Shown: positions 9,043 to 60,000, counted from the first letter of the stretch. The stretch: 64,000 nucleotides of DNA from an uncultured Methanosarcinales archaeon (GCA_964428445.1 CAYRYC010000001.1:13704-77703), one strand, 5' to 3'. Program-made: numbers and translations. The notes: generated from the letters alone by a model not told the origin.

Positions 9043-9270
9043 TCACTCAATAAATTCAAATCTCTTCATGGTTTTACCATCGCGTTCTATTGTTTCTAAG
9101 AATTCATCTTTTGGACGAGTCCACAAAGATCCTGCTTTGAAGTCGCCAAAATCATGAAGTTTCTTGTAAATAACTACATCCTTTAGAGTTTCACTGTCTT
9201 TACCTACGCCAATAACTTCAACTAGAAGATCTTTGAAATGTTTATATTTACCTAATTTAACTTCAGACAC
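9043..9270 (-). CDS. DUF1653-family small protein
   Basis: 75 aa. GKYKHFKD...VIYKKLHDFG...SLWTRPKDEF matches the DUF1653 pattern (GxYxHYKG ... WxRP). Confidence 0.5.
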   Translation of the reverse strand: MSEVKLGKYKHFKDLLVEVIGVGKDSETLKDVVIYKKLHDFGDFKAGSLWTRPKDEFLETIERDGKTMKRFEFIE

Positions 9271-11863: not shown

Positions 11864-14800
11864 TTAATTTTTTTCTAAAATTCTCACAATGCCATTGTCA
11901 GCATCGACTTCAACTAAGTCTCCATCCTTAAGAACTTTTGTTGCAATCTTAGTTCCTATAATACAAGGAACGCCTAGCTCTCGAGAAACAATGGCTGCAT
12001 GACATAATAATCCGCCTTCATCAGTAATAAATGCGGCTGCACGTCGCATACCTGTAATTAATTCCGGCGTAGTCATGCTTGCAACAAGAATTTCTCCTTC
12101 TTGAAGTTCATCAGCGTCTTTTTGAGTATAAGTTTTTTTTACTCTTCCTATAACCTTACCTTTAAAGGCAATAGTCCCTTTTAGTTCATTAACATTTTCT
12201 GTAAAAGGTTCAAATTCAGTTATTCCTTCTCTTTGTATAAGTTTGTCCACTTCCTCTTTTCCAAAAACTTCTTCATATTTACCATCATCTAAAATCAATG
12301 CAAAATATTTTGCACGTTCAGTTAAATCTTCTTCAGGTAAAATCTCTGTTTCTAGCCAAGTAACAAATTCGTCTTCAAATAAATTCATAATCTTTTCTTC
12401 ATTAAAACCAAGATTTGTTAATGTTTTTCTTAAGGCCCAATTAGCACGTACTAAAGCAGATTTACTCTCATCAAACATATATGATGTTCTTCTTATAATA
12501 TCTATTAACCAATCAATATATTCATCATCATATTTTGGAACTTCATTAGTTATTGGTTTTTGTTCTTCTTTAAGTGGACGTTTAATTTCATAAATATAAT
12601 TTTCTGCTAACCATTCTTTGGCCATGTATTCTGAATGAATAAATCCAAAAGATTCAGCAAGTTTTTTTGCTTCATTTTTCATTTCTTCATCATCAATCAA
12701 TTCTTTATGATATTTTTCTTTTATCTCGTTGATAGCATGATTCTCTTTGCTAATCGTTGTTAGTTTATGAGGTATAGTAATATTTAATTTAACTTTTTCA
12801 AATTCTTTTTCACCTAAAACAAATTTTAGTTGCTCTAAAGCAATTTGAGTCAAATAATAACCAGAAAACATGAAACCAACTTCTTCCTTATACGAACCAG
12901 AAAATTTCAATAAATCATCTTTTTTAGAACTTGGAAGAAGTTCCAAATCTTTTTCAATAGTATCATCTACTTTAATTAAAATTTCATAGACATCAGAATT
13001 TTTCTTTGAAATTAATTCTTTGAAATTAGTATCAAAACAAGCTTTTGTAGATTCGAAATCAACGGAACTTTTCTCACCATAAAAAATAGCCAGATATTTA
13101 GGATAATTAAAATACAAATTGTTTATCTTCGTTCCTTCTTTCAAGATACTCATCATACTTGACCAAGTTAAAGGAGATAAATTTCTTGCTCCTAATTTCG
13201 TCCATTTGATTACAGAAGCATCATTCAATATCTTAACAATGCCATTATCAGCATCGACTTCGACCATATCGCCCGTTTTAAGAATTCTTGTAAGTCCCTT
13301 TATACCTACAATGCAAGGAATCTTTAATTCTCTTGAAGTTATAGACGCATGGCATATTGCACCACCATGTTCGGAAAGTATTGCTACAGATTTTTTCATA
13401 GCAGGGAGAAAATCAGGAGTGGTTGTTGAAGAAACAATAATTTCATCTTCTTGGAATTGTCTTACTTCATCTATATTTTCAACACAACGAACTTTACCTT
13501 TTACTTTTCCAGGATACGCTGTTTGACCTTCAAGTAAAGTTTTCCCTTCAACATTCTCTTCCTTAATTTCTATGTTGAATTTTTCTTTAACAGCTTCCAT
13601 AGAATCCTGTAATTGACCGTCAGTGTATACAAAACCTTCTAATCTTTTTCTAAGAACATCATCTGAAGGTAAAATTCCTGATTCTACTTCTTCTAAAGAA
13701 ATAACGTCAACGAATTGTTGTTTCTCAGGAAAAAGTTTTTTCAAAGTGTTTCTAATAGTTCCTGTTGTTCCTGGAGCTAGTTGTTCTGTTTGTTTTCTCA
13801 CTATAATAAGATCTTCTAAAGGTAAATTCTTTTTATCGTAATATTCAATCGCCCACCACATGCAATCCCACCAAGCCCATGCATCTCGGATGTTCTTTAT
13901 GAAATCTAAAAAATCTTCTTTGCTTAAAGCAGGTTTATTGAGAATAATATCTTCAACTTTTTTGTAATGTTTAATAGTTTCTTCTTTCATTACTTCTTTA
14001 TCGAACTTTCCTGCCTGCTCTATCTTCCAATCTATACCTTTAGGATTATAGTAATAATATAGAAGATTATTTTTTCGTTCGAAAACACAATAAGGATGAA
14101 AAGTGAATGGTTCGTTTAACCAAGGAACGTCTCGTCTTGATTCTTCCTGATTGGTTAATTCTGCAATAATTAAAGGAAAGTCATGATGCATTAGTTGAGT
14201 GTATTCTTTTTTTTTATTCTTTTTTTCAAGAATTTTTACAATTCCATTGTCAGCATCAACTTCGACGAAATCGCCATCTTTGAGAACTTTCGTTGCAATT
14301 TTAGTTCCAACAACACAAGGAATGTTGAGTTCACGAGAAACAATAGAAGCATGACAAGTTAATCCACCTTCATCTGTAACAATTGCAGATGCTTTTTTCA
14401 TTGCAGGTACAACACTTGGAGTGGTAGCTGTTGATACTAAAATATCTCCTTTATTCATTTTATGCATATCAGCAGGTTCATTTATTATTTTCACAATTCC
14501 TTTTGCAAAGCCTTTACATGCCAGAGATCCTTTGATACTGTCCACATCCTCCAGGGTTTCTTCTCTTTCAAATGTTGAAATAAAATCTTGCGCGTCTTGG
14601 CCGTGAATAACAAGAACACCACCTTCTTTTTTAGAAAGAATTACATGAAAATCATATAGACTATCCAAAAGATCGCTGTCTACAGATCCGTTTGCAAGAC
14701 CTTCTTTGAAAAGTTCAGGAGTAAGACCTCTTGCTTGATTAAAAGAAATGTTAAGACGTTTAGCAATTTCTTTAAACATCATTTGCATATGATAATAACT

Positions 14801-16717
14801 TTTACTCTGGTGATCTTTTCTTCTAGGTTTTGCCCAAACTACTTTTCCTGTTAAACGAAGAATCATCTCGTTAAACTCATCCGGCTGAAGTTTTTTTATT
14901 ATGTCCTCTCGTTTTTCACCTATTTGTTTTCTTTTTAATCTTATTTCAATTAATTCTTCTTGGGGAGTTTTATTTTTAGAAAGATTATCCTTAATAAAAT
15001 CTAAAAACTCTTTTTCAGTAAATGCAGGTCCTGCATATACATAATATATCCAAGCATATTTTTCTGTGTGTTCAGAAAGTTTTTTGAAAAAATCAAGATG
15101 AGAAGTTTTCAAAGATTCAACTGTTCCTTGCAAGATATCTTTACTCCATTGCCCAGAATAAAACTCACTCATCAATTCTAAAAGAGCTTCTTCTTGATCT
15201 TGAGCATAGGAATTATATAAAGGATAAGTACATATATCATAATACTCTTGAAATTCTTCAACAGAACTTGTTTTAGATTCTAAAAACGATTTCATATTTC
15301 CTTCAACAAAAGAAAAATCTCGGAAATCCATTATAGAAAGTATCATACCATAAGCATCCAGCATTTTCATTTTATAACGAAATTGTTCGTACAAAGAGAA
15401 TAATTCGTCGTTAGAAAAAGTTGAAAAATCTTTTGTAAAAATATTCTCTTGACTCCATATATTAAATACATCTCCCATTTTAAGAGTTTTATCAATTAAT
15501 TTTTCTACATAATATCTATCTGCTTCAATATATGTTTTTAATTTATTGTGAGCTCTAATCCAAGTATCCATATCAACACAATAATCCAATTTTCTTTTTC
15601 TACTTGCAATACCGCCCATCAATCGCGGAATATCAAACTCTTTTGCTTGTATTTCAAAAGATTCCATCCACAAATAATTTCTAAACATATGAGAGTTAAA
15701 ATCATTTGCAACACTAACTAAATTAGCGTCAGTATATACAAATCCTTTTTTCGAACTAAGCGTTGTTATAGGTCGACTTTGCACAATGTAGAATTCTCCG
15801 CCTTCCATAGCCCATTCTATATCCACAGGAAAACCATAATGTTTTTCTATCTTAACAGTAAGCTTAGATAATTCTACGATTTCATCTTTAGTAAGAGCTT
15901 GTTTAGAACCTTCTGATAAAGTCAGTTCCTTCCAAACATTACCACCACCAACATCACGAACAAGTTCTCTAGGCTGCTCATTAATTTGAACATCAGTAAA
16001 AGACCAATCTCGTTTATCAACAACATAACTATCAGGAGTTATTTGTCCAGAAACAATAGATTCGCCAAGACCGAAACCAGCCTCGATAATAATTTGATCA
16101 TAATCTTGAGTAACAGGATGAACAGAGAAAGCAATTCCAGAAACTTCGCTGGCAATCATTTTCTGAACAACAACAGCTACAGAAATTTGTTCATCATGCA
16201 ATTCTTTTTCAAAACGATAAGCAATAGCACGAGGAGTAAATAAAGAAGCCCAACAAAGTTGAACATTCTTCAGTAATGTTTCTTCAGTTGTGTTCAAGAA
16301 AGAATCCAATTGACCAGCCCAAGCTGCGTCTGCACTATCTTCAGAAGTTGCTGAAGAACGAACAGCGACAAAAGGAGCATTAAGATTTTTGAATTCAAAT
16401 AAAATTTCTTCTTTTAGATCTTCAGGAAAAGCTCTACCTTTAATCAAACCTTGAATAGCCTCGGAAGCAAAATCAACAGTATGAACTGCCTCGGTATCTA
16501 CTTTATCAAGTTCAACTTGAATCTCAACTTTAAGATTGCTTTCTTCGACAAAACGATCAAAAGCAGAAGACAAAACAACATAACCAGGAGGAACAGCAAT
16601 ACCCGCTTGAGTCATCTCTCCAAGAGAAGCTCCTTTACCTCCAGCAATATCTACATTCTTGCTGTTCAAATCAGAAAATCGTTTAATAAAAACCATAAAA
16701 GTACTATATTCACCCAA
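11864..16717 (-). CDS. giant PEP-synthase/PPDK-like protein: N-terminal PPDK_N ATP-grasp domain followed by three phosphohistidine (PEP-utilising mobile/swivel) domains
   Basis: 1617 aa. N-terminus FSDLNSKNVDIAGGKGASLGEMTQAGIAVPPGYVV...GGEFYIVQSRPIT is PPDK_N. Three swivel domains carry the catalytic His: GGLTCHASIVSRELNIPCVVG, GGAICHASITSRELKIPCIVG, GGLLCHAAIVSRELGVPCIIG. Each ends with G-D-x-V-E-V-D-A-D-N-G-I-V. No PEP-utilising TIM-barrel C-terminal domain. Confidence 0.75.
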   Translation of the reverse strand: MGEYSTFMVFIKRFSDLNSKNVDIAGGKGASLGEMTQAGIAVPPGYVVLSSAFDRFVEESNLKVEIQVELDKVDTEAVHTVDFASEAIQGLIKGRAFPEDLKEEILFEFKNLNAPFVAVRSSATSEDSADAAWAGQLDSFLNTTEETLLKNVQLCWASLFTPRAIAYRFEKELHDEQISVAVVVQKMIASEVSGIAFSVHPVTQDYDQIIIEAGFGLGESIVSGQITPDSYVVDKRDWSFTDVQINEQPRELVRDVGGGNVWKELTLSEGSKQALTKDEIVELSKLTVKIEKHYGFPVDIEWAMEGGEFYIVQSRPITTLSSKKGFVYTDANLVSVANDFNSHMFRNYLWMESFEIQAKEFDIPRLMGGIASRKRKLDYCVDMDTWIRAHNKLKTYIEADRYYVEKLIDKTLKMGDVFNIWSQENIFTKDFSTFSNDELFSLYEQFRYKMKMLDAYGMILSIMDFRDFSFVEGNMKSFLESKTSSVEEFQEYYDICTYPLYNSYAQDQEEALLELMSEFYSGQWSKDILQGTVESLKTSHLDFFKKLSEHTEKYAWIYYVYAGPAFTEKEFLDFIKDNLSKNKTPQEELIEIRLKRKQIGEKREDIIKKLQPDEFNEMILRLTGKVVWAKPRRKDHQSKSYYHMQMMFKEIAKRLNISFNQARGLTPELFKEGLANGSVDSDLLDSLYDFHVILSKKEGGVLVIHGQDAQDFISTFEREETLEDVDSIKGSLACKGFAKGIVKIINEPADMHKMNKGDILVSTATTPSVVPAMKKASAIVTDEGGLTCHASIVSRELNIPCVVGTKIATKVLKDGDFVEVDADNGIVKILEKKNKKKEYTQLMHHDFPLIIAELTNQEESRRDVPWLNEPFTFHPYCVFERKNNLLYYYYNPKGIDWKIEQAGKFDKEVMKEETIKHYKKVEDIILNKPALSKEDFLDFIKNIRDAWAWWDCMWWAIEYYDKKNLPLEDLIIVRKQTEQLAPGTTGTIRNTLKKLFPEKQQFVDVISLEEVESGILPSDDVLRKRLEGFVYTDGQLQDSMEAVKEKFNIEIKEENVEGKTLLEGQTAYPGKVKGKVRCVENIDEVRQFQEDEIIVSSTTTPDFLPAMKKSVAILSEHGGAICHASITSRELKIPCIVGIKGLTRILKTGDMVEVDADNGIVKILNDASVIKWTKLGARNLSPLTWSSMMSILKEGTKINNLYFNYPKYLAIFYGEKSSVDFESTKACFDTNFKELISKKNSDVYEILIKVDDTIEKDLELLPSSKKDDLLKFSGSYKEEVGFMFSGYYLTQIALEQLKFVLGEKEFEKVKLNITIPHKLTTISKENHAINEIKEKYHKELIDDEEMKNEAKKLAESFGFIHSEYMAKEWLAENYIYEIKRPLKEEQKPITNEVPKYDDEYIDWLIDIIRRTSYMFDESKSALVRANWALRKTLTNLGFNEEKIMNLFEDEFVTWLETEILPEEDLTERAKYFALILDDGKYEEVFGKEEVDKLIQREGITEFEPFTENVNELKGTIAFKGKVIGRVKKTYTQKDADELQEGEILVASMTTPELITGMRRAAAFITDEGGLLCHAAIVSRELGVPCIIGTKIATKVLKDGDLVEVDADNGIVRILEKN

Positions 16718-20960: not shown

Positions 20961-21091
20961 TGCGGGAGCGGAGATTTGAACTCCGGACTTCCACGGTGCA
21001 TCACCAATTGAATAATCATCGACAATAAATTGTCTCATCGCTCAATTGCGTTTATGAGCGTGGCGATCTAACCAGGCTGAACTACTCCCGC
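20961..21091 (-). tRNA. tRNA-Met (anticodon CAU) with ~56-nt intron adjacent to the anticodon loop
   Basis: Reverse-complement reads GCGGGAG-TA-GTTCAGCCTGGTTAGATC-G-CCACG-CTCATAA-[intron]-CGTGG-AAGTC-CGGAGTTCAAATCTCCG-CTCCCGC-A. CCA is not encoded. The exact intron junction (37/38 or 38/39) is ambiguous by eye. Confidence 0.7.
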
Positions 21092-31954: not shown

Positions 31955-32184
31955 GGTGTTCAAACCTCGTTTATTTTTTTGTTTTAAGAAATGGGAATAG
32001 AACTCAGAAAAAGACCTAAAGGACTTTTACTAAATTAGTCGATGCGAACATCGATAATTATCCCACAATTCCTCAATCAGATATCTTAGATTGCTAAGAC
32101 ATCTTCATTTATCACAGGTAACTGTGTAGGCGATAGAAACAGCCAATCGTTTATAAATATATTCTTTAATAGTATACAAGAACA

Positions 32185-32194
32185 TTTATAAATA
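32185..32194 (+). promoter_or_regulatory. TATA box ~25 nt upstream of prepilin peptidase ATG
   Basis: tttataaata; ATG at 32215. Confidence 0.4.
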
Positions 32195-32214
32195 ATCCTG
32201 GCCTGGTTTGCACT

Positions 32215-38588: not shown

Positions 38589-39671
38589 TCACCTTATTAA
38601 TTTGACTATTCCTTTATTTGCATCAACTTCTACAAGATCACCATCTTTTAATAGAGTGGTAGCATTACCAGTTCCGACAATGCAAGGTATTCCTAACTCT
38701 CTGGAAACAATTGCGGCATGGGAAAGTAAACCTCCTTGATTAGTAATAATAGCAGCGGCTTTTTTACAAGCAACGAATAGTTCTGGAGAAGTTGTTTCTG
38801 CTACCAATATTTCTCCTTCTTTCATTTTATTAATCAATTCTTTAACAACATCAAAATTGTTGTAGCCATAAACAAAAAGATTTACATTTCCTCTAACAAG
38901 TCCTTTGTTAGCAGGAGTTCCTTTTACAACAAAAATTTCTTTTACAAGAGGACATTCTTGCCCTTTGAATGAGGCAATTTGTTTTTTTGCATCCACACCT
39001 ATAAGGACTGTTTTATTTTTTTCAAAAGATGTAAAGTATGCTTGTTTTCTTCTAAACAGAATAGATTCTTTTACTTCTTTATCATTAAACAGAGCAAGTA
39101 ATTCTTCGTGAGTATATTGTTGTAATAAATCAAAATTTATCTCGAACTTTTCACTTAGTTGATTTAGACATCTGTTAATATAACTTTGATTTCCAAAAAA
39201 GACTTTATTCAGATCTTCTCTCCGAGCGTTCTTCATATTTGCTAAACTGGACAAGTTTGTTTTTGTTATTTCGCAATCTTTTTTGAAGGCTCGATCTACA
39301 TAAAAAAATTCTGTCTTAATATAGTAGGTATGAAATAAAACAATATAATTGAGAAATTTTTCTAGATTAGCTTTAGAAATATCCTTGGAAAAAAACGATT
39401 CAATAAATTCATTAAACTCAGTTACATAATTATCAAACTCATTCACATAGTTCGAAAATAATCTAGGAGACGATAATAACCTTACACCATAATCTAATGT
39501 CTTATCAACAACAGAGCGAGGTAAATAGCCAATCCAATCTGTCCCATCAAAAAGAAAAACAGCATTAAGATTGGAATAATTTTTCACTAAAGTATCATTA
39601 ACAAAAAAAGGCATTCCTCCTACTTCAAACAAACGTTGATAGTCAAGAATAGTTTTTTTCTTAAACAACAT
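38589..39671 (-). CDS. stand-alone PEP-utilising (phosphohistidine swivel) domain protein with N-terminal substrate-binding-like region; no ATP-grasp domain
   Basis: C-terminus EILVAETTSPELFVACKKAAAIITNQGGLLSHAAIVSRELGIPCIVGTGNATTLLKDGDLVEVDANKGIVKLIR is nearly identical in pattern to the three swivel domains of the 1617-aa protein. Confidence 0.65.
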   Translation of the reverse strand: MLFKKKTILDYQRLFEVGGMPFFVNDTLVKNYSNLNAVFLFDGTDWIGYLPRSVVDKTLDYGVRLLSSPRLFSNYVNEFDNYVTEFNEFIESFFSKDISKANLEKFLNYIVLFHTYYIKTEFFYVDRAFKKDCEITKTNLSSLANMKNARREDLNKVFFGNQSYINRCLNQLSEKFEINFDLLQQYTHEELLALFNDKEVKESILFRRKQAYFTSFEKNKTVLIGVDAKKQIASFKGQECPLVKEIFVVKGTPANKGLVRGNVNLFVYGYNNFDVVKELINKMKEGEILVAETTSPELFVACKKAAAIITNQGGLLSHAAIVSRELGIPCIVGTGNATTLLKDGDLVEVDANKGIVKLIR

Positions 39672-45471: not shown

Positions 45472-45583
45472 AGCCTCCGCCGAGAGTTGAACTCGGGACC
45501 TCTGCATCTTTGAAATTCGATGAATTACAAATCATTCGTACGAATATACCAATGCAACGCTATAGCCACTAAGCCACGGAGGC
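45472..45583 (-). tRNA. tRNA-Thr (anticodon GGU) with ~39-nt intron at canonical 37/38 position
   Basis: Reverse-complement reads GCCTCCG-TG-GCTTAGTGGCTATAGC-G-TTGCA-TTGGTA[intron]A-TGCAG-AGGTC-CCGAGTTCAACTCTCGG-CGGAGGC-T. Confidence 0.75.
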
Positions 45584-50412: not shown

Positions 50413-51540
50413 TCAACCAAGGTTGATTTCATACCATCCTTTTTCTCTAGCTTGCTTGTTAAAATAACGGTCGTGAGAAACAACCCATAATTGACTTTTT
50501 TTAGATTGGTCAAAAATCTTACTAGAATAGACGTCTTGAGAATTTTCATCTAAATTTGCCATAGGCTCATCTAGAAGAATAACATTATTTTCTCCTTTAA
50601 ATAATTCATCCATATAATGTTTATCTTGCTGACCGCTACTTCCTGTAATCGCTTTGAGAGTTTCTTCTTTACCTTTTAAAGTCAATATACTTGTTCTTTT
50701 GGTTTTTTGTCCAGGAATATTATATCGTGCAAATATATGGTTTTTTTCCCCTTCATTTTTCATGAATAACCATTCAGAGAAAGTAGTATCGAAAGCACCC
50801 AAGATATTATGATCTAATAATGCACAAACCGAGTAGAGTTTATTTGGTGAGACTTTGTATTCTTTAGCTAATAAGTTTATAACATCAGGATATTCTTCAG
50901 CTACTTGAAGAAACGGTAAATCATTTTGATTCATGTTTGGATTAAGTGTTTCCACATACTGAGTAATTTGATAAACAAAAGTTGCAAAAGCCATTTCAGG
51001 AATTTCTATATGTTTTGAGTATTTTAGTGCTAATGAACTAATATATTGCTCATCTAGTGGTTTTTCTGGATCAAATGTGTTTGTAAATTTTTTAACATTC
51101 AAATGTTCAAGAAAACCTTTCACATTTTTTTTAATAATTTTTTTTGCTTCTTTTTGTACTCTGGCATTAATTTCCTCTTCACTAGCAGACTCTCCTAATT
51201 CCTCAGTTATTGATTCATGATGTCCTTCACTTACAGAATTATCATATTTAGCTCCTATGTATTCATTAAAATCTTGATCATCTGTCAATTCTTCCATTTT
51301 TAATAACGGAGAATAACATTGTATGAAATTTGGTAGTTGAGTATTTAGTTGATCAGTACGTTTATAACCTCGTTGTCGATTAATACGTTCACTCTCAAAC
51401 AACATATGTAAAAGAGAAGATTTTCCAGAACCAGAATTTCCTGTGATAAGAACAGATTCGTTTTCAGGAGCATATATGGTTCCTGGTTTAATAATTACTT
51501 GAGGTGCGTAAGGTATAAGTATTTCAGTTTTTGTTATCAT
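50413..51540 (-). CDS. stand-alone ABC-type ATPase with ~250-aa acidic insertion between Walker A and signature/Walker B
   Basis: Walker A GNSGSGKSS; signature-like TGSSGQQ; Walker B VILLDEPMANLD; H-loop VVSHD. No TM domain and no adjacent permease. Confidence 0.55.
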   Translation of the reverse strand: MITKTEILIPYAPQVIIKPGTIYAPENESVLITGNSGSGKSSLLHMLFESERINRQRGYKRTDQLNTQLPNFIQCYSPLLKMEELTDDQDFNEYIGAKYDNSVSEGHHESITEELGESASEEEINARVQKEAKKIIKKNVKGFLEHLNVKKFTNTFDPEKPLDEQYISSLALKYSKHIEIPEMAFATFVYQITQYVETLNPNMNQNDLPFLQVAEEYPDVINLLAKEYKVSPNKLYSVCALLDHNILGAFDTTFSEWLFMKNEGEKNHIFARYNIPGQKTKRTSILTLKGKEETLKAITGSSGQQDKHYMDELFKGENNVILLDEPMANLDENSQDVYSSKIFDQSKKSQLWVVSHDRYFNKQAREKGWYEINLG

Positions 51541-51705
51541 GATTATATCCTCTTAAAATATAATCTCACCATCTGAAACAACTCAAACAAAGTATTTAAA
51601 CATTACGCCAGGCACAAATACATAACATTTATAAATCAAATCACACATCTTTTAATAAACATTAAAACTTATAAAACTTAAATTACATAAAAAAGGATAA
51701 ACAAA

Positions 51706-52200
51706 GTGATGAAAACAGATTATTTCAAATTGCAAGAGCAAATGTCTCGACGTTTCGGAGCGAAGCCTACGGAAGCTACAATAATTGCAGTTATCAAAAC
51801 ATCTACCGAACCGATTTCCCTGGACGAAATAGCTGAACAAACAAAATATTCACTAGCAACGGTTAGTAATGCTATTCGAAAATTCGAAATGCATGGAATT
51901 CTTTTCAGAAGTAAAAAACCAGGATCTAAAAAAGTATATGTTGAAGCAAAAAAAGATTTTATCAAATCAATGAAAGAAAATTTGAAAATGGTAACTTCAA
52001 ACATACAGCTACTTGTCGAAGCACTTCCGCTAATCATAGAAAAAACAAAACTTCGAATACAAAGTAAAGAAGGCTTAGGAAATCAAAATGATTTACAAAG
52101 AGACAAGAAAGATCTGGAAATGCAAAAAGACGAACTTCGTCAAGCAAAGATAACAAGCAAAATAATGGCTGAAACATTAAAAAAATTGGAAGAACACTAA
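51706..52200 (+). CDS. winged-helix transcriptional regulator with C-terminal coiled coil
   Basis: ISLDEIAEQTKYSLATVSNAIRKFEMHGIL HTH segment. Its stop abuts the ABC ATPase start (52200/52202). Confidence 0.4.
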   Translation: MMKTDYFKLQEQMSRRFGAKPTEATIIAVIKTSTEPISLDEIAEQTKYSLATVSNAIRKFEMHGILFRSKKPGSKKVYVEAKKDFIKSMKENLKMVTSNIQLLVEALPLIIEKTKLRIQSKEGLGNQNDLQRDKKDLEMQKDELRQAKITSKIMAETLKKLEEH

Positions 52201-52201
52201 A

Positions 52202-52942
52202 ATGGCTGAGAAAAAAATTACGAAAAAAACAACCCATAGCAAAACTGGCAAAAGTAAGAAAGATATAGTTCTTTCATTAAGAAATGTCTGGCGAACCTAT
52301 ACTATGGGGGATAATAAGATTCACGCTCTTAAAGGATTAAACCTAGATGTAAAGAAAGGAGAATTCTTAGCAATACAAGGACCTTCAGGATCAGGTAAAT
52401 CTACTGCTCTAAACATGATAGGGGTTTTAGATCTACCATCACAGGGAGATATATTTCTAGATGGACATAATATTAACAAATTTACAGAATCACAACTCGC
52501 ACAATTAAGAGGACAAAAAATAGGATTCATTTTTCAAAAATTCAATCTCATAAATACATTAACAGCAAAAGAAAACATTACATTACCATTAATTTTCCAA
52601 GGAAAAACTGAAGCAGAACGAGAGAAAAAAGCACAAGAGCTTCTTGACCTCGTTGAAATTGCTGATCGAGCAAATCACAAACCAGGAGAACTTTCAGGAG
52701 GACAGCAACAACGAGTAGCAATTGCTAGAGCACTTGCAGTTGATCCAGAAATTATTCTGGCAGACGAACCAACAGGAAACCTTGACAGTAAAAGTGGAGG
52801 AACAGTAATGGACTTCCTAAAAAAACTACACAAAGAACAAGGTAAAACAATCATCATGGTAACCCATGATTCAAATCTTACAAAATACGCCGATCGTATT
52901 GAAACACTCAAAGACGGCGAAATCCAAAAAAATCGAAAATAA
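52202..52942 (+). CDS. ABC transporter ATP-binding protein (MacB/LolD/FtsE-like)
   Basis: Walker A GPSGSGKST, signature LSGGQQQRVAIARAL, Walker B ILADEPTGNLD, H-loop VTHD. Confidence 0.85.
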   Translation: MAEKKITKKTTHSKTGKSKKDIVLSLRNVWRTYTMGDNKIHALKGLNLDVKKGEFLAIQGPSGSGKSTALNMIGVLDLPSQGDIFLDGHNINKFTESQLAQLRGQKIGFIFQKFNLINTLTAKENITLPLIFQGKTEAEREKKAQELLDLVEIADRANHKPGELSGGQQQRVAIARALAVDPEIILADEPTGNLDSKSGGTVMDFLKKLHKEQGKTIIMVTHDSNLTKYADRIETLKDGEIQKNRK

Positions 52943-52961
52943 AATTTAGATTTTTAGGGAT

Positions 52962-53015
52962 GCAAAGAAAACTAAAGTTTTCTTGCACAAAAAACAATTA
53001 TTGTTTTTTAGTGCT
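52962..53015 (+). terminator. two adjacent hairpins followed by T-tracts after ABC ATPase gene
   Basis: gcaaagaaaactaaagttttcttgc is an 11-bp inverted repeat. aaaaaacaattattgtttttt is a 10-bp inverted repeat ending in T6. AGGTGA Shine-Dalgarno site for the next gene follows. Confidence 0.4.
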
Positions 53016-53074
53016 GAAAAATATTAAAAATATTTTTCAAGCATTGTGACTAAACATCGAAAGGTGAGCAAAAA

Positions 53075-54298
53075 ATGAACAAAAAAATAATTTTAGGAAT
53101 TATGCTGCTTATTGTTATGCTAGTAGGCACAACATTAGTAAGCGCAGCAGTAGACACAGCTAACCTCGAAGCGTCACTTGTACGTTACGAGCCACTTCCT
53201 GCACAACCAGGACAATACCTTACAGTATATGTAAAAGTGGAAAATGATTATGCATATCCTGCAGAAGATGCAGCTATCAGAATCAAAGAAGAATTTCCTT
53301 TCAGTGTTGTAAACATAGATGATTTAGAACAAGACTTAGGAATCATCGAAGGACGAGATAGCCAAGTTGCGGAATTTAGACTTAAAGTTGATAGTCAAGC
53401 TGCAGTTGGAACAAATTATCTAACAGTAGAATATACTCAAGATAAATTCAAAGGGGTATGGAAAGAAGCAGAACTTAGTATTTCAATAAGACCGAACGAT
53501 GCATCTCTTTCAATTTCAAATGTGAAAACAAGTCCTGAAGAAATTACTCCAGGAAGTGAAGGAGTTCTTGAAATAACAATTAAAAACACCGCAGAAATTA
53601 CTCTAAGAGATATTGGGCTTCAAATCGGACTCGTCAGCATTGACGGAACGGATCTTCCATTCATCCCAACATCAGTTACTGAAAAAAGAGTTGGAAAAAT
53701 TAATCCTGCTGAAATTATAACATTAAGTTTTCCTCTGAAAGCATATCCAAGTGCAAGCCCTGGTTATTACAAATTACCAATGCGAACAACATTCTACGAT
53801 GAAGAAGGAACAATGACCACACAGGACGATTTTGTTGGAATTATTGTAAAAGCAGAACCCGAACTAAAGGTATATGTTGAAGACGTAGAAGCTACAAAAG
53901 GCGGAACTGGAAAAATTACTTTCAAATTTGTTAACAAAGGAATTAGTGATCTTAAATTCTTAGACATAGTAGTTCAAGAAGGAGAAGGATACAAAGTTCA
54001 CGATTCAACAGATAGATACATCGGAGATTTAGATTCTGATGATTATCGTAGCGAATATTTTAACATCGAACTACTTGATGAAGAAACTGAAGTAAATATT
54101 CTAGTTAGCTACAAAGATGAAAATAATAATATTTACGAAACAACAGAAATAGTTATGGTAAATGCTTCAAGCGGAAACGGACAAAAATCAGGACCTTCAT
54201 GGTTTACAATTTTACTTGTAATTGTTTTAGCAATTATTGGAATTAGATATTTCATAAAAAAAAGAAAAGCAAGTAAGGCTAAAAAAAATAAAAAATAA
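53075..54298 (+). CDS. exported protein with C-terminal TM anchor (extracytoplasmic component of the ABC system)
   Basis: Signal/anchor MNKKIILGIMLLIVMLVGTTLVSA. C-terminal helix WFTILLVIVLAIIGIRYF followed by KKRKASKAKKNKK. Confidence 0.5.
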   Translation: MNKKIILGIMLLIVMLVGTTLVSAAVDTANLEASLVRYEPLPAQPGQYLTVYVKVENDYAYPAEDAAIRIKEEFPFSVVNIDDLEQDLGIIEGRDSQVAEFRLKVDSQAAVGTNYLTVEYTQDKFKGVWKEAELSISIRPNDASLSISNVKTSPEEITPGSEGVLEITIKNTAEITLRDIGLQIGLVSIDGTDLPFIPTSVTEKRVGKINPAEIITLSFPLKAYPSASPGYYKLPMRTTFYDEEGTMTTQDDFVGIIVKAEPELKVYVEDVEATKGGTGKITFKFVNKGISDLKFLDIVVQEGEGYKVHDSTDRYIGDLDSDDYRSEYFNIELLDEETEVNILVSYKDENNNIYETTEIVMVNASSGNGQKSGPSWFTILLVIVLAIIGIRYFIKKRKASKAKKNKK

Positions 54299-54310
54299 GG
54301 ATATAGCCTC

Positions 54311-55519
54311 ATGAACCTTAAAGAAGCACTACGTATTGCACTTATCAACATTACTCACCGAAGAGTCCGGAGTTTGCTCACTCTCATAGGAATCTTCGCA
54401 GGTATTGCTGCAGTAGTAGCTCTCGTTAGTCTCGGACAAGGTTTACAAGGCGCTATCAATGATCAATTCTCAGACATCGGTGCGGATGTCTTTACAGTCA
54501 GCGGAGCAGGAAGTGCATTTGGACCTCCTGGAACAAATGCTGTTGGATCCATAGGTGATCATGACATAACAGTTATAGAACGCGTCAATGATGTCGACTT
54601 TGCCTTTGGTCGTTATATCAGACCATTTCAAATGGAATTTAATGGAAAAGAATCTGGAGGCTATGTTGCATCCTTGCCTGAAGGAGCATCCTTCGAACTC
54701 ATGCTTCAAGCACTCAATGTTGAAGTTGTAGAGGGACGAATGATTACTCCAGATGATAAACGGAACATAGTTGTTGGTGGTTCCGTAGACGTTGATAATG
54801 ACAAATTAGAAGTTGGACAAAAAGTTACAATAAAAGATGAAGTGTTTAGAATTGTTGGCGTGTTGAAAAAAACAGGAAATCCAATGGTTGATGCGGCGAC
54901 ACTCATGACAAAAGACAGCACCGAAGAACTCTTTGAAGTGGAAGATGATTATAGTATAATTGTTGTCGCGGTTGATGAAGGAGCGGATCTTTTAGAAGTA
55001 AAAGATGCTGTTGAACGACAAATGCGACGAGATCGAGATGTAAAAGAAGGCGAAGAAGATTTTCAAATATCAACACCTCAAGAAACATTAGAATCACTTA
55101 ACTCAATTCTTACAACGGTTCAAGTATTGATTGTAGGAATAGCTGCAATCAGTTTATTAGTTGGAGCAATAGGAATTGCAAACACAATGTATACTGCAGT
55201 ATTAGAACGACGGCGAGAAATTGGAATTATGAAATCCGTCGGAGCGAAAAACAGCGATGTACTAACAATATTCCTTATCGAATCAGGAATGCTCGGTCTT
55301 GTAGGTGGAATCATAGGACTTATTGTAGGAGTTCTTATCAGTAAAGGAATAGAAGCAGGAGCATATTATTATTTTGGCGAAAGCCTCATCAAAGCAACAA
55401 TACCATTTTGGTTAATTGCAGGATCACTTGCATTCGCATTCATTTTAGGAACTGTGTCAGGAACACTACCTGCAAAACAAGCATCACAGCTTAAACCTGT
55501 GGACGCATTGCGCAAATAG
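54311..55519 (+). CDS. FtsX/MacB-type ABC transporter permease
   Basis: N-terminal TM helix, large extracytoplasmic domain, three C-terminal TM helices. Conserved motif NTMYTAVLERRREIGIMKSVGA. Confidence 0.75.
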   Translation: MNLKEALRIALINITHRRVRSLLTLIGIFAGIAAVVALVSLGQGLQGAINDQFSDIGADVFTVSGAGSAFGPPGTNAVGSIGDHDITVIERVNDVDFAFGRYIRPFQMEFNGKESGGYVASLPEGASFELMLQALNVEVVEGRMITPDDKRNIVVGGSVDVDNDKLEVGQKVTIKDEVFRIVGVLKKTGNPMVDAATLMTKDSTEELFEVEDDYSIIVVAVDEGADLLEVKDAVERQMRRDRDVKEGEEDFQISTPQETLESLNSILTTVQVLIVGIAAISLLVGAIGIANTMYTAVLERRREIGIMKSVGAKNSDVLTIFLIESGMLGLVGGIIGLIVGVLISKGIEAGAYYYFGESLIKATIPFWLIAGSLAFAFILGTVSGTLPAKQASQLKPVDALRK

Positions 55520-55525
55520 CGCAAT

Positions 55526-55614
55526 GTTCGATGCGTAAGTATCGTAACTTTGAGAAAATGAATAATACAATTATTCATTTTAGAAAAGTTCGACGCACAA
55601 GTGTCGTAACTTTG
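55526..55614 (+). repeat. two copies of ~27-nt motif GTTCGAYGCRYAAGTRTCGTAACTTTG flanking a 17-nt palindrome
   Basis: R1 at 55526-55552, R2 at 55588-55614; palindrome gaataatacaattattc at 55560-55576. Related copies follow the second permease gene. Confidence 0.55.
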
Positions 55615-55674
55615 CGTAAATAACGCAATATTGAGAATGACAATAAACAAAACTTTGAAAAAATAAAAAGAAAA

Positions 55675-56898
55675 ATGATACTAGAATATTTCAAAATAGC
55701 ATTGCGGTCACTTACGCGACGAAAAACACGTAGTTGGTTAACTATGATTGGAATATTCATAGGTATTGCAGCGGTTGTTTCTCTTATTAGTCTTGGTCAA
55801 GGAATGCAAGATTCCATCCAAGAATCTTTTGAAAGTATTGGAACTGATAAATTATTCATCAGTCCCGGAAGTTCTCTTTTCTCCATAGGAGAAAACATAG
55901 GAACGGAACCCATAACAGAGGATGATGTTCGTTTCTTAATAGGGCAGGGCGGTGTGAAATATGTTACCTATTACGCCATGACCAGCGCAAAAGTAGAATA
56001 TCAAGATGTAGTCAGGTATTATCTAATTGCAGGAATTCCTACAAACAACAAAGACATAGAACTTATGGAAGCACTTTTGGGTGTTGGAATGGCTAAAGGA
56101 AGAATGCTTTCTGCAGGAGATAGAACTGCAACAGCTATTGCATTCTACCATAATGAAAGAGGTTTATATGATGGGGAAAATATGAATGTAAATAGTAAAT
56201 TTCTCATTAATGATCAAAAATTCTATGTTGCAGGAGTATTCGAACCAATAGGAAGTTCTCAGGATGATAAAATGATTTATCTCCCAATAGATTCATTCAG
56301 AGATGTTACAGGAATAGAAGAACGAGTAGATTATGTTATCGTTCAGGTTGCAGAAGGAAAAGATCCAGCAATTATTGGTGATGAATTGAAACGATCCCTG
56401 GCTCGATTCCGAGGAGTTAAAGAAGGAGATGAAGATTTCACCATACAAACACCTGAAGAATTACTAGCATCATTCCAAACAATCCTAGACATCGTCAAAG
56501 CAGTGTTAATTGGTATTGCATTAATTAGTTTATTTGTTGGAAGTGTTGGAATCATGAACACAATGTATACTTCCGTTCTTGAAAGAAATAAAGAAATTGG
56601 AATTATGAAAGCAATTGGTGCAAGAAATAAAGATATCTTCTGGCTATTTTTTATTGAATCAGGAATCCTAGGACTTGTTGGAGGTGCCATAGGAATTATT
56701 ATAGGAACAGGATTGGCAAGCGCGGTAGAATTAGTTAGCACACAAGCACTCGGTAAATCATTCCTACAAGCAAATTATTCTTGGGAACTATTTGTAGGAG
56801 CATTAGTATTCTCATTCATTGTCGGAGCTTTAGCAGGAACACTACCTGCAATCCAAGCAAGTAAAGAAAAACCCGCAGATACTTTACGCGATGAATAA
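55675..56898 (+). CDS. FtsX/MacB-type ABC transporter permease (second paralogue)
   Basis: Same architecture as the first permease; motif NTMYTSVLERNKEIGIMKAIGA. Protein identity to the first copy is roughly 35-40%. Confidence 0.75.
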   Translation: MILEYFKIALRSLTRRKTRSWLTMIGIFIGIAAVVSLISLGQGMQDSIQESFESIGTDKLFISPGSSLFSIGENIGTEPITEDDVRFLIGQGGVKYVTYYAMTSAKVEYQDVVRYYLIAGIPTNNKDIELMEALLGVGMAKGRMLSAGDRTATAIAFYHNERGLYDGENMNVNSKFLINDQKFYVAGVFEPIGSSQDDKMIYLPIDSFRDVTGIEERVDYVIVQVAEGKDPAIIGDELKRSLARFRGVKEGDEDFTIQTPEELLASFQTILDIVKAVLIGIALISLFVGSVGIMNTMYTSVLERNKEIGIMKAIGARNKDIFWLFFIESGILGLVGGAIGIIIGTGLASAVELVSTQALGKSFLQANYSWELFVGALVFSFIVGALAGTLPAIQASKEKPADTLRDE

Positions 56899-56913
56899 AA
56901 CGAATAGTGTAAA

Positions 56914-56990
56914 GTTCGACATGTAAGTGTCATAACTCTGTGTAATGAATAGGAACACAGAGTTCAACGCGTAAGTGTTGTAATACTAAG
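56914..56990 (+). repeat. two further copies of the ~27-nt GTTCRAC..TAAGTGT..TAA motif flanking a palindrome
   Basis: R3 at 56914-56940 (gttcgacatgtaagtgtcataactctg), R4 at 56963-56990 (gttcaacgcgtaagtgttgtaatactaag). Palindrome ctctgtg-N13-cacagag at 56937-56963. Confidence 0.5.
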
Positions 56991-57005
56991 AGATGAGTAA
57001 CAAAT

Positions 57006-60000
57006 CTATTTCTCTTTAGTAAATGTAGAACTATAATCTAATTCAGCAAATGCTGCTTGAAGGAAAGGATGTAGTTTTTCTTTCTCTTCTTCAGATAAAG
57101 TTTCATATATTTTAACAGCTTCTGAATATTTCTTTTTAGAAATAAGTAACTCGTCAAATTCTAAAGCAAGTGTTGCATTGTAAAGAAGTTCTTGAACTCT
57201 CTTGAAAGGCTCTTCAGATAAAGACATCTCGTTAATTGATCGAGCAACATCTTCAGTTTCAGTTTTAGAAATACTTAATACTTGTTCTCTAAATAATTCT
57301 AGGCTAAGAAGTAATTCTTCTCTAGATAATAATTCTTCTTTACTTAGTAATTTATGTATTTCTTCTTGATCCTTAAGAGATTTTTTTACTTTATTAGTGG
57401 TGGAAAGTTTTTCAATGGATCGATTATTTTCTTTCATACGACTATTTGTAAAAATGAATCCAAAGAAATTAGTAAATAATAAACTTAATTTATGTTGAGG
57501 AACATCTACCGATTTTGTTGAAACAGATTCTTTTTCCAGACCAGATAAATTTCTTAATAATTGTTTTTTCTGTGCTGCGGTTAATAATACTTGTTTAGCC
57601 TTATGACCTAAAGCAATAATTCCATATTTACTTGCTATTTTTATAGCTCCTAATAATATTAATGCCAATAGACCAAATCCTATTATACGAGCTGTTTTGT
57701 TATCAAATAATTCTCCTGCTTTACATGCTTCGCAAGAACCGCCACAATCAACACCTTTTTCATTTTGATTTTTTATACCATCAAAACAAGTTCCGCAGGG
57801 TTCACAAGGACCGCCACAATCAACACCTAATTCTCCGTAATTTTGAATACCATCAAAACAATTTTTACAAGGAACACAGAAAGGACCGCCACAATCAATT
57901 TCTTCTTCGAAATTATTAAAGATTCCATCAAAACAAGTTTTACACACATCACAGAAAAGTCCGCCACAATCAATATCTTCTTCTCCTTGATTTTTTATAC
58001 CATCATTACAACTAGCACAAGGTTTACATTCTCCACCACAATCAACGCCTTCTTCGAATTCATCCTGTATACCATTTTCACAGAAAATTAATTGTTCACA
58101 GCTTTCTTCAAAATATAATTCATTATTAGTGTAACAACTATTGTTATCAACGCAGGTTCTATTTTTTGTTCCATTCTCATTGCAAGGAGACCAGTCAGGG
58201 CAGAACCAATTAGGAGTACAAAATCCTCCGCCTCCACCGCCTCCACCAGGAGGAGTTGTAGTTGTTCCAATTTTCAAAGTATTGTTTGTTGTAGCCCAAG
58301 AGGATGCAAAATAAACATCATAGGCAAGACAGTTCCATTCATATGTCGCCAAAGGTAAACCTGAAACAATCCAAGAATTACTATCTGAATTTCCGGAAGA
58401 TGAAATAGAATTTTCATAAAAAATTACTCCGGTATTAGCATTCCAAACGCTTAAACTAAAATTGTATAAGTCTGTATTTGAAGTAACATTACATGTAAAT
58501 GTCTGTGTTGTGGAAGTTGATTGTGTATTATCAGTAGGAGCAACAAGAGTTACTAAAGGAGCATCTACAAAATCACAGGCTTCATTAAGATTAGCAGGAG
58601 CATATGTACAATTCCATAGTTCTCCATTAGTTCCAACTCCTGAACTAGAATAATTATTACAAATAAAGAACGATTCTTTTGTTGAATTAGCAGGATCTAA
58701 ATCTAAATCATATATTCCAGTCCATAAACCATAAAGATTATCATCCGATGGAGTTGTTATGGATCCTGAACAGGTCACAAGATCTCCTGAATAGCTTGCA
58801 GGAATTGTTCCTGCATTAACAACGGATCCATTTGTTGCTTGATAATATACATTGCATTTTGAGATGCTTTCTGAATCGTCACTGTAGAACTGCGAACTCA
58901 CACTTATTGTTATTAATGAACTATTATAGAAATTATTTGTTAATAAAAATGATCCTGATTTATACGCAGGAATTATATTAATTGTTTTTGATTCGGAAAC
59001 GGCTGTTGCATAATTACCCGTATCATCCCGTGCCCAGAATGAAAAATTATATGTTCCGCTTTCAACCATATTTCCTATTGTGAATTTACAATCGGAAGCA
59101 TCATCTCCTGAAACAAGATAGGAGTTCGGACCTGAAGCATTGTAGAAACAACGATCAATGGTTCCATCTTGATAATCTCCATTCTCAGTATCATTTGCAG
59201 AAACCCCAAACCACACACCAGAACCATAGCTAATATTTACTGAGCTAGCAGAAGGTTCGCTAATTGCTAAATTAACCGTTGGAGAAATATTATCAAGTAT
59301 TCTAAAATCAATGCTATGTCCTGTTGAAGGAACAGCAATGGTAAAATATAATTCAAAAGCATCATTAAAAATAGTGTCGTTGGTAGGAATGTTTACTGTC
59401 ATAGATATTGAACTAGCACCGGAACCGTTTACTGCATCCTGAAGAACTATTTGTCCTTTTGTATTAGAACCATCTTCAGAATATGATTGAGTTTCAAAAT
59501 TAGCCTGTGTTGATCCTGTTGTAATAAAATTTTCTCCTTGTAAACCAAGATGAACGGGAAGAGCAACACCTAAAAGATTACCAAGCCATAAATAAGCAGT
59601 AGAAGAATAGGAACCATATGTAAATTGTATTGTGAAATTATTTCCTAATCTTACTCTATTATCCCATAGAGCATAAAGTCCGTCAAATGTTTGCGAACTT
59701 GTTGAAGGAGGAACATATGTTCCAGTCATAAGAGTATTGACAATACAATATGCTTGAGCCGCGCAATCGCTATCAACGCAATCAATGGAACCATCGCCAT
59801 CATTATCAATGTCATCATTACAAACTTCTGCACTGCAAGAAGCAAATCCTAAACAATCACTATCCTGGCAATCAACTTGACCATCGCCATCATTATCATA
59901 GTTATCAGAACAAAGATAAGCATTATTTTCTATAGCAAGATAAAACTGATGATCATATGATGAAAGTTGATATAAACAATCAGCATCGTTCTCATCGATT

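Follow-up and report, generated by a model that had tools for sequence, protein, structure and literature searches.

The stretch of archaeal DNA analysed here (GCA_964428445.1 CAYRYC010000001.1:13704-77703; 64,000 nucleotides (nt), referred to over its whole length as the window) contains an operon in which each of two paralogous permease genes, FtsX1 and FtsX2, is followed by an array of short hairpin-forming repeats. The operon is headed by a MarR-type regulator gene, followed by genes for an ABC ATPase and a membrane-anchored protein and then by the two permease genes, and all four copies of the repeat sit within it, as judged from the gene list and Pfam. Three spacers are distinguished: IG0 (52943-53074) between the genes for the ATPase and the membrane-anchored protein, IG1 (55520-55674) between FtsX1 and FtsX2, and IG2 (56899-57005) behind FtsX2. 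W denotes the locus in the window, and labels such as L011 and L020 denote loci fetched from relatives. The genome has a G+C content of about 33 % and contains tRNAs with introns, the permease homologues are labelled Woesearchaeota, Nanoarchaeota or Nanobdellota, and the host is a tiny DPANN archaeon with a Woesearchaeota-type genome. The repeats are classed here with the extragenic palindromic or protective stem-loop elements; they form a young, local and lineage-specific hairpin family that comes and goes between relatives, and that probably shapes the operon mRNA rather than being a new kind of system.

The repeat has a 23-nt core, GTTCGACGCGTAAGTGTCGTAAC, which occurs four times on the + strand with 2 to 3 mismatches, at 55526, 55588, 56914 and 56962, against 0.00 copies expected by chance in dinucleotide shuffles. 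A preliminary description of the DNA had reported these four copies downstream of the FtsX genes, placing the last one at 56963, and both the copies and the two palindromes that it named (55555-55581 and 56934-56964) were recovered. Identity to the reference copy is 65-81 % across both arrays. In a position weight matrix scan of the window the four copies scored 32 to 36 and the next best site 12.6, and a covariance model run with filters off gave no fifth copy in the window. Apart from one marginal match to a tRNA-Asn gene, no further copy was found in about 19 kb of flanking genome taken from other assemblies; in the 82,919 nt searched in total (window and flanks), the core was absent outside the two FtsX gene ends. 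A degenerate 26-nt core pattern gave two single chance matches in a metagenome collection and one, in Acinetobacter, in a genome collection, the source genome evidently being among the genomes of neither, and the viral collection gave no match to either the window-type or the L011-type pattern. Occurrence at dozens of unrelated sites, which the preliminary description had named as the mark of a generic element, was therefore not seen in these 83 kb or in the three public collections. At least 10 metagenome assemblies, made independently, agree exactly in the array DNA, so that it is no assembly artefact.

Each core is predicted to fold into a 9-bp stem with one bulged U, closed in three of the four copies by a GUAA tetraloop of the GNRA type, with free energies of -4.9 to -8.5 kcal/mol. 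The core thus sits in intergenic positions as a short imperfect palindrome able to form a stem-loop, as do repetitive extragenic palindromic elements (REPs) and bacterial interspersed mosaic elements (BIMEs). Across the four copies, 35 of the 36 pair cells of the stem hold standard pairs and one is broken; two pairs are altered on both sides and three on one side by way of G-U. The same hairpin was obtained independently when six cores (four from the window and two from L011) were folded jointly with RNAalifold, with three pairs compensated. The G-U pairs and the GNRA loop exist solely on the + strand, which is the sense strand of the permease genes. The arrays as wholes also fold more stably on that strand, IG1 at -47.3 kcal/mol against -42.6 kcal/mol on the - strand (z -6.3) and IG2 at -34.1 against -27.7 kcal/mol (z -3.7).

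Both arrays have the same order, namely a stop-codon hairpin, a core, a central hairpin and a second core, with the two cores 39 nt apart in IG1 and 25 nt apart in IG2 (Table 1). The central hairpins of the two arrays are unrelated in sequence: that of IG1 contains the palindrome GAATAAT-ACA-ATTATTC inside a perfect hairpin with 12-bp arms, and that of IG2 the palindrome AACTCTGTG...CACAGAGTT, its 5' arm being the start of the tail designated tail 3' (ACTCTGTGTAATGAATAG, 56935-56952). The stems of the stop-codon hairpins are built from the Leu-Arg codons of the preceding gene together with the sequence just 3' of them. In the first (S1) the 5' arm consists of the codons Ala-Leu-Arg, with Arg written by the rare codon CGC, and S1 is kept in L011 with one change on both sides. 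CGC encodes the terminal Arg of both FtsX genes, within the stop-hairpin stem in each case, and accounts for 19 of the 635 Arg codons in the window (3 %). A decayed third unit in IG1 (55624-55666) is colinear with a third unit in L011.

Table 1 Features of the operon and of the repeat arrays in the window
Feature	Position	Strand	Sequence or structure	Basis or remark
MarR-type regulator gene	51706-52200	+	operon head	Pfam MarR 4e-08
ABC ATPase gene	52202-52942	+		Pfam ABC_tran 1e-35
IG0 hairpin stretch	52925-53040	+	7-bp stem enclosing the ATPase stop codon, then three perfect tandem A/U-rich hairpins	
Membrane-anchored protein gene	53075-54298	+		without Pfam match; called COG1361-like in the account of the ancestral operon
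FtsX1	54311-55519	+	MacB_PCD and FtsX permease, 402 aa; 3' end GCA TTG CGC AAA TAG	Pfam, open reading frame list
Stop-codon hairpin S1	55505-55527	+	GCATTGCGC-AAATA-GCGCAATGT, 9 bp (perfect 8-bp stem found)	TAG in or beside the loop
Core W1	55526-55548	+	GTTCGATGCGTAAGTATCGTAAC, 9 bp, bulged U, GUAA loop	-7.8 kcal/mol
IG1 central hairpin	55546-55590	+	palindrome and 6-bp outer helix across a GAG/AGA internal loop	
Tail 1	55547-55561	+	ACTTTGAGAAAATGA (Thr-Leu-Arg-Lys-stop)	copy of the ancestral FtsX1 end; cf. L019 gene end GTTGAGAAAATAA
Core W2	55588-55610	+	GTTCGACGCACAAGTGTCGTAAC	-8.5 kcal/mol
Tail 2	55609-55629	+	ACTTTGCGTAAATAA and CGCAAT	repeats the real gene end and linker TTGCGCAAATAGCGCAAT; small hairpin TTGCG/CGCAA
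Third-unit core remnant and tail 3	55630-55666	+	ATTGAGAATGACAATAAACAAAAC and ACTTTGAAAAAATAA	remnant no longer folds; tail 3 ends 8 nt before the FtsX2 start
FtsX2	55675-56898	+	MacB_PCD and FtsX permease, 407 aa; 3' end ACT TTA CGC GAT GAA TAA	Pfam
Stop-codon hairpin S2	56881-56915	+	ACTTTACGC pairing with GTGTAAAGT, 9 bp, 17-nt loop with TAA	fold
Core W3	56914-56936	+	GTTCGACATGTAAGTGTCATAAC	-4.9 kcal/mol
IG2 central hairpin	56934-56964	+	AACTCTGTGT...ACACAGAGTT, perfect 10-bp stem, 11-nt loop	fold
Core W4	56962-56984	+	GTTCAACGCGTAAGTGTTGTAAT	-6.5 kcal/mol
Tail 4	56986-57000	+	CTAAGAGATGAGTAA (Leu-Arg-Asp-Glu-stop)	copy of the ancestral FtsX2 end; 14/15 match to L013 gene end
Convergent gene, 2019 aa	57006-63065	-		weak Big_9 (Ig-like) match in Pfam; context, not part of the element

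Each core runs into a tail of 12-15 nt, which reads Leu-Arg-Lys-stop behind FtsX1 and Leu-(Arg/Cys)-(Asp/Asn)-Glu-stop behind FtsX2, and the microhomologies AAAG and ACTYTG flank every core. Relatives that lack arrays keep the ancestral gene ends: in L019, FtsX1 ends in ...TTGAGAAAATAA and the next start codon follows immediately, and in L013, FtsX2 ends in ...CTAAGAGATGAATAA. Used as probes at no more than one mismatch, the L013 FtsX2 end CTAAGAGATGAATAA had its sole match in the window at 56986-57000 (0.02 expected) and the ancestral FtsX1 end ACTTTGAGAAAATAA matched only at 55547 and 55652 (0.12 expected). Because the relatives' ancestral ends match only at the tails, the tails are copies of the local gene's ancestral last 12-15 nt (Leu-Arg-Lys-stop or Leu-Arg-Asp-Glu-stop). 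The gene ends of the relatives are themselves of the tail type, AGAAAATAA. The outermost tail is the best-preserved copy, and the present CGC-bearing gene end is a newer one that closes the frame upstream of the insert; the terminal Arg of array-less relatives is mostly AGA, while some have CGA or no Arg there. The resemblance of the tails to permease gene ends noted in the preliminary description therefore held against the relatives' ancestral ends, and not against the window's own present ends, for which a crude 18-mer Hamming comparison gave six mismatches, as for 10 other genes, and was not above background. Its proposal of micro-duplicated gene termini applies in the same way to the tails and was not borne out for the core, which shows no alignment to the coding stretch that precedes the tail. 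The second array does lie next to the convergent 2019-aa gene, with the last tail 5 nt and the last core 21 nt from its stop codon, where about 15 bp had been given.

When the orthologous regions of relatives were aligned, a colinear IG1 array was found in L011 (75-77 % identity to W, with 75 % for FtsX1), in the order stop hairpin, CGCAAA linker, core, tail, central palindrome, core, tail, linker, decayed core, tail. The motif is absent from the other loci, in which the same junction has a 66-nt A/C-rich spacer (L020/L021, 81 % identity), a 20-nt spacer (L022, 76 %), or genes that overlap or lie at most 9 nt apart (L012, L013, L017, L018, L019 and L023; 57-65 %, four measured), and no core copy was found in the relatives' loci outside the FtsX1 end. 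Stop hairpin and central hairpin are 100 % paired in both W and L011. The six differences between them in the arms of the central hairpin make up three compensated pairs and the stop hairpin adds one, giving four in all, and the two L011 cores differ from each other by two compensated outer-stem pairs. Linkers and tails are identical at 43 of 51 positions (~84 %) between W and L011, compared with 47-62 % at the four-fold degenerate sites of the flanking genes; the cores are only about 52 % conserved, though their pairing is retained.

The two permeases are 40 % identical in protein sequence and the pair is kept in all relatives examined, so that the genes called duplicated in the preliminary description are indeed paralogues, but old ones and not the outcome of a recent duplication. 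The cores are far more alike between the arrays than the genes are, which argues that the gene duplication did not pass the core on and that it reached both ends by spreading afterwards. The IG2 cores are nearer to the IG1 cores of W than to those of L011, and the IG2 array occurs in W only, L011 having 290 nt of A/C-rich, low-complexity sequence without the motif behind FtsX2; these two facts together suggest that, within the W lineage, one gene end acquired the core from the other while the tails stayed local. By the same sequence evidence the IG2 array appears to have arisen later than the IG1 array. In a neighbour-joining tree of FtsX1, a single protein without support values, the branching is ((L022,(L020,W)),L011), and, taken with the distribution, this means that the array was either ancestral to a small clade and lost twice, or exchanged between lineages. 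Loss would be easy, since recombination between the direct tails would remove the array cleanly. Long low-complexity spacers of the AAACAAAACAAA type, A/C-rich on one strand and T/G-rich on the other, occur at the same operon junctions (L011 4122-4412, L020 1236-1301, L023 1777-2041). Such A/C-rich spacers may be the decayed end-state of arrays of this kind.

Predicted structure is not confined to the two arrays. IG0 has three perfect hairpins, at 52965-52984, 52989-53009 and 53015-53039, whose sequences are unrelated to the cores, and its fold has an energy of -34.7 kcal/mol (z -5.7). This spacer exists only in the W lineage, the same two genes overlapping in L011 and L012. An internal 54-nt direct repeat was also noted in IG0 (52936-52966 / 52990-53020). 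The three spacers of the operon are among the most structured intergenic regions of the window (z -4.3 to -6.4), equalled only by a tRNA-bearing region and by the spacer 32001-32214, which is unrelated to the arrays. A stem of at least 7 bp surrounds the stop codon in three of the four operon genes, compared with 4 of 50 other genes.

Several known kinds of signal were looked for at the arrays and set aside. A terminator scan gave no bacterial-type intrinsic terminator at the cores or central hairpins, the stems being followed by UUUG or ACU. Archaeal termination is signalled by at least five consecutive T in the sense strand close behind a gene; IG1 has no T-run longer than T4, which lies within a stem, and IG2 has none before the convergent gene. 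A bacterial promoter scan gave no prediction at the motifs, Rfam 15 gave only tRNAs at gathering score in the window and chance-level matches at E up to 10 in 52900-57050, and neither C/D-box nor K-turn features were seen by eye. Stop-codon read-through or recoding was rejected: TAA, TAG and TGA are all used (29/14/11), and the extension differs by radical changes, although unit A lies in frame behind TAG in both genomes. A small open reading frame was rejected as well, as the ATG in tail 1, which would give 21 aa, is missing in L011. Integron attC sites have the form R''(RYYYAAC)...R'(GTTRRRY) and lie as imperfect hairpins of 57-141 nt behind cassettes, with an integrase nearby; here the stretch that runs from the ...TAAC of one core to the GTTC... 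of the next has a length of 54 nt (IG1) or 40 nt (IG2), the core sites fit the consensus only in AAC/GTT, no integrase was found among the window proteins scanned, and the genes form a conserved operon rather than cassettes. Cores W1 and W4 are complementary to codons 8-16 of FtsX2 (…TTGCGGTCACTTACGCGACGAAA…, 55691-55730) at -23 kcal/mol, the best non-self duplex in the window, but background duplexes reach -20.5 kcal/mol, and W2, W3 and the L011 cores have no such pairing.

The arrays are tentatively explained as products of serial micro-duplication or template switching at gene ends that are now kept as stem-loops of the operon mRNA, most likely for 3'-end protection or for uncoupling, a reading to which we give somewhat less than an even chance. 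The ancestral operon would have been tight, with the MarR regulator, the ABC ATPase, the COG1361-like protein, FtsX1 and FtsX2 overlapping or separated by gaps of a few bases. In the W lineage, serial local duplication or template switching mediated by microhomology would then have placed short inserts just ahead of the last codons, first of FtsX1 and later of FtsX2. Every round would have added one 23-nt hairpin and a fresh 12-15 nt copy of the gene end, so that the reading frame would always be closed by Leu-Arg-...-stop. The FtsX2 end would have obtained its core from the FtsX1 end, the tails remaining local. Transcribed with the operon, the arrays would act as rows of sense-strand RNA stem-loops and, by analogy with bacterial transporter operons, could block 3'-to-5' exonucleolytic decay and set stable 3' ends of the upstream cistron. 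A second effect would be to undo the coupling of translation that comes with gene overlap in relatives, leaving FtsX1 and FtsX2 free to be synthesised at different levels. Constraint at the RNA level is suggested by the sense-strand G-U pairs, the GNRA loops, the CGC codon in both stop stems, conservation above that of four-fold sites and the four-part layout rebuilt in the second array. Protective intercistronic hairpins such as that of malE-malF are known (PMC5927463), and palindromes no more than 15 nt from a stop codon affect translation (PMC12306157).

A number of observations weigh against this explanation, and some of them favour a neutral by-product: slippage or template-switch debris at the gene ends of an AT-rich, fast-evolving genome, without a role and decaying to A/C-rich spacer, with hairpins that only look conserved because template switching makes and repairs palindromes. 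The arrays are dispensable, since the closest relative, L020/L021, and L022 lack the IG1 motifs and L011 lacks the IG2 array, and this patchy distribution needs two inferred losses. Decay has reached some units, namely the third one of both genomes and La of L011, and decayed units no longer fold, and A/C-rich spacers occupy the same junctions in L011 (IG2) and L020 (IG1). The W/L011 covariation comes from two genomes only, and a shuffle control equalled it in 33 of 500 trials. In documented cases template switching has given rise to hairpins and preserved them, apparent compensatory changes included, and a single event can yield perfect stems and multi-site 'compensation' without selection (PMC8794818). 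No run of at least five U follows the stems, a role in 3' ends, mRNA half-life or stoichiometry is a prediction only, and archaeal decay and termination differ from the bacterial precedents. Because the distribution is patchy and units are decaying, a neutral origin is almost as likely as retention as mRNA stem-loops, a real possibility with about one chance in three. Against it stand the G-U pairs of the core (kept in three of four copies) and the GNRA loop, which are not template-switch products and fit one strand; the linkers and tails, conserved well beyond four-fold sites; the rare CGC codon in both stop-hairpin stems; and the building of the same four-part layout twice with different central sequences.

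A further alternative is mobility. On this account the unit is a miniature mobile hairpin, REP-like or similar to miniature inverted-repeat transposable elements, or related to bulge-helix-bulge tRNA introns, which inserts at ...ACT-YTN-MGN... FtsX ends, duplicates 12-18 nt of target and depends on an enzyme in trans. The core did move between the ends of paralogues that are only 40 % identical, and each copy is flanked by a local gene-end copy in the pattern of a target-site duplication; a resemblance of the L011 cores to a tRNA-Asn gene and a possible bulge-helix-bulge in IG1, both described below, point the same way. The element has only two insertion sites in 83 kb, however, and none in relatives' loci away from the FtsX1 end; the metagenome and genome collections, from which the source genome is absent, gave single chance matches and the viral collection none; no transposase, integrase or RAYT gene lies within the window; and no known transposase generates duplications of such length with a cargo of 23 nt. 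The match to the tRNA gene, which the W cores do not share, is marginal, and the bulge-helix-bulge has no counterpart in IG2. This origin is judged unlikely. Binding sites on the DNA, whether operators for a MarR-type regulator or recombinase- or origin-type sites, are suggested by the dyad symmetry of the core (GTTCGAC-N8/9-GTCGAAC-like) and by the MarR-family gene at the head of the operon, but the copies lie behind genes and none in the promoter spacer 51541-51705, the half-sites change by compensation and G-U so as to preserve RNA pairing rather than a fixed recognition sequence, pairing is retained in L011 at about 52 % core conservation, and there is neither a GC-skew turn nor an Orc1/Cdc6 gene near the arrays; this reading is very improbable. 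The shared cis element of the preliminary description consequently survives as a conserved sense-strand RNA hairpin, and neither as a terminator, for which U-run and scan match are lacking, nor as an operator. Least probable is a degenerate mini-array of clustered regularly interspaced short palindromic repeats (CRISPR) or a CreA-like unit with two hairpin repeats around one spacer. The two direct 23-nt hairpin repeats do begin with GTT and end with AAC, but their 'spacers' are palindromic, unequal in length (39 and 25 nt), contain gene-end copies and are homologous between genomes, the units are tied to gene ends, and the window has neither a cas gene nor an array with the core repeat; a CRISPR array proper was rejected on the same grounds.

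The tRNA resemblance arises from the sole near-match of the core model elsewhere in the genome, which lies antisense to the tRNA-Asn(GUU) gene about 5 kb past the end of the window (L025 4007-4124, - strand). The gene has a 46-nt intron at position 37/38, and the near-match spans the anticodon and the first 20 nt of the intron. Core b of L011 agrees with it in 17 of 19 nucleotides (18 of 23 when aligned without gaps), a level reached in 2 of 150 simulated 83-kb sequences (p ~0.01-0.03); the cores of W itself do not match. Archaeal tRNA introns are hairpin inserts of similar size, and three intron-bearing tRNAs are present in the genome. The bulge-helix-bulge motif consists of two 3-nt bulges on opposite strands with a 4-bp helix between them and helices flanking, whereas the cores have one bulged U and the tRNA match is antisense. 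In one register, a strict bulge-helix-bulge can be fitted to the extended central hairpin of IG1, with a GAGA/UUUU centre and the bulges AAA (55556-55558) and AGA (55582-55584), and the nucleotides of this would-be core are the best-conserved part of IG1. The drawing is weakened by the arbitrary register in A/U runs and by the preference of the minimum free energy fold for a 3x3 loop, and the strict scan missed the genome's true tRNA motifs, which served as positive controls. The tRNA-Asn link is thus a marginal lead from sequence similarity. It is quite improbable that the 23-nt hairpin is a miniature DPANN mobile element, descended from the tRNA-Asn anticodon/intron junction or related to it, which would invade mRNA 3' ends, duplicate last codons so that the host gene survives, and possibly be cut or spliced by the tRNA splicing endonuclease, an enzyme of broad specificity in these organisms. 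The two further intron-bearing tRNA genes, at 20961-21091 and 45472-45583 (-), carry anticodon-loop insertions of about 58 and 41 nt and were missed by ARAGORN in bacterial mode; their bulge-helix-bulge, drawn by hand, has one extra nucleotide.

Among known systems, REPs and BIMEs share with the arrays short imperfect palindromes, RNA stem-loops of 20-40 nt and clustering behind genes or between the cistrons of transporter operons, and REPs are reported to stabilise upstream mRNA and, near a stop codon, to affect translation (PMC5927463, PMC12306157). They differ in being dispersed in tens to hundreds and linked to RAYT, whereas the present copies number four in 83 kb, at two paralogous ends in a DPANN host, and no RAYT gene was found in the window; these copies are also all direct rather than alternating and, unlike REPs, each carries a duplicate of the last codons. 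Hairpins of the malE-malF type are likewise stable on the sense strand, stand several in a row between ABC-transporter cistrons and take part of their structure from adjacent coding sequence whose synonymous sites are constrained (PMC5927463), and W has such intercistronic stem-loops with pairing kept in a relative, namely in L011 alone. Here, in contrast, archaeal RNases rather than PNPase or RNase II would be blocked, and the hairpins are a repeated sequence family from local duplication. Template-switch hairpins offer perfect stems, multi-site 'compensatory' differences and inverted adjacent copies (PMC8794818), and so a route to a hairpin with its local tail; the cited work, however, concerns changes within existing RNA genes, and here the process must also give serial direct gene-end duplications and copying between genes 1.4 kb apart. 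Rickettsia palindromic elements and similar small insertions that spare the reading frame are palindromic repeats of 100-150 nt that insert at or in genes with the protein preserved, and are dispersed and translated. The present units differ in following a functional stop codon, the frame being saved by gene-end duplication.

The surroundings of the operon were also surveyed. None of the 53 window proteins scanned contains a transposase, integrase, RAYT or cas domain. The 2019-aa gene downstream varies in length among assemblies only through gene calling, its DNA being identical, and at the orthologous position relatives have a much shorter protein (about 650-670 aa) in which that weak domain recurs. 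Upstream, divergent from the operon, is a gene for a 375-aa protein (50413-51540, - strand) in which an ABC/SMC-type ATPase is represented by no more than its Walker-A and distal ends, and the same neighbour is found in other assemblies of the genome. Elsewhere in the window, an unusually long protein of 1617 aa (11864-16717, - strand) contains PPDK_N and three PEP-utilizers mobile domains, and a 360-aa protein (38589-39671) contains one PEP-utilizers domain. The convergent genes 8068-9042 (+) and 9043-9270 (-) abut without a spacer, and a common palindrome, GAATTTAAATAATCACTCAATAAATTC, encloses both stop codons.

Arrays comparable to those behind FtsX1 and FtsX2 are undocumented for DPANN archaea in the literature searched and in Rfam; unless the tRNA-intron lead holds, they are a local curiosity and no new system. 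The locus offers a clean natural test of whether selection or template switching lies behind 'compensatory' hairpin evolution. It shows, at the level of a single locus, how a tight archaeal operon with overlapping genes gains structured spacers while its proteins stay undamaged. Provided that the hairpins have an effect on the mRNA, archaea would have in them a parallel to the REP-type and protective stem-loops with which bacteria set the subunit ratios of transporter operons.

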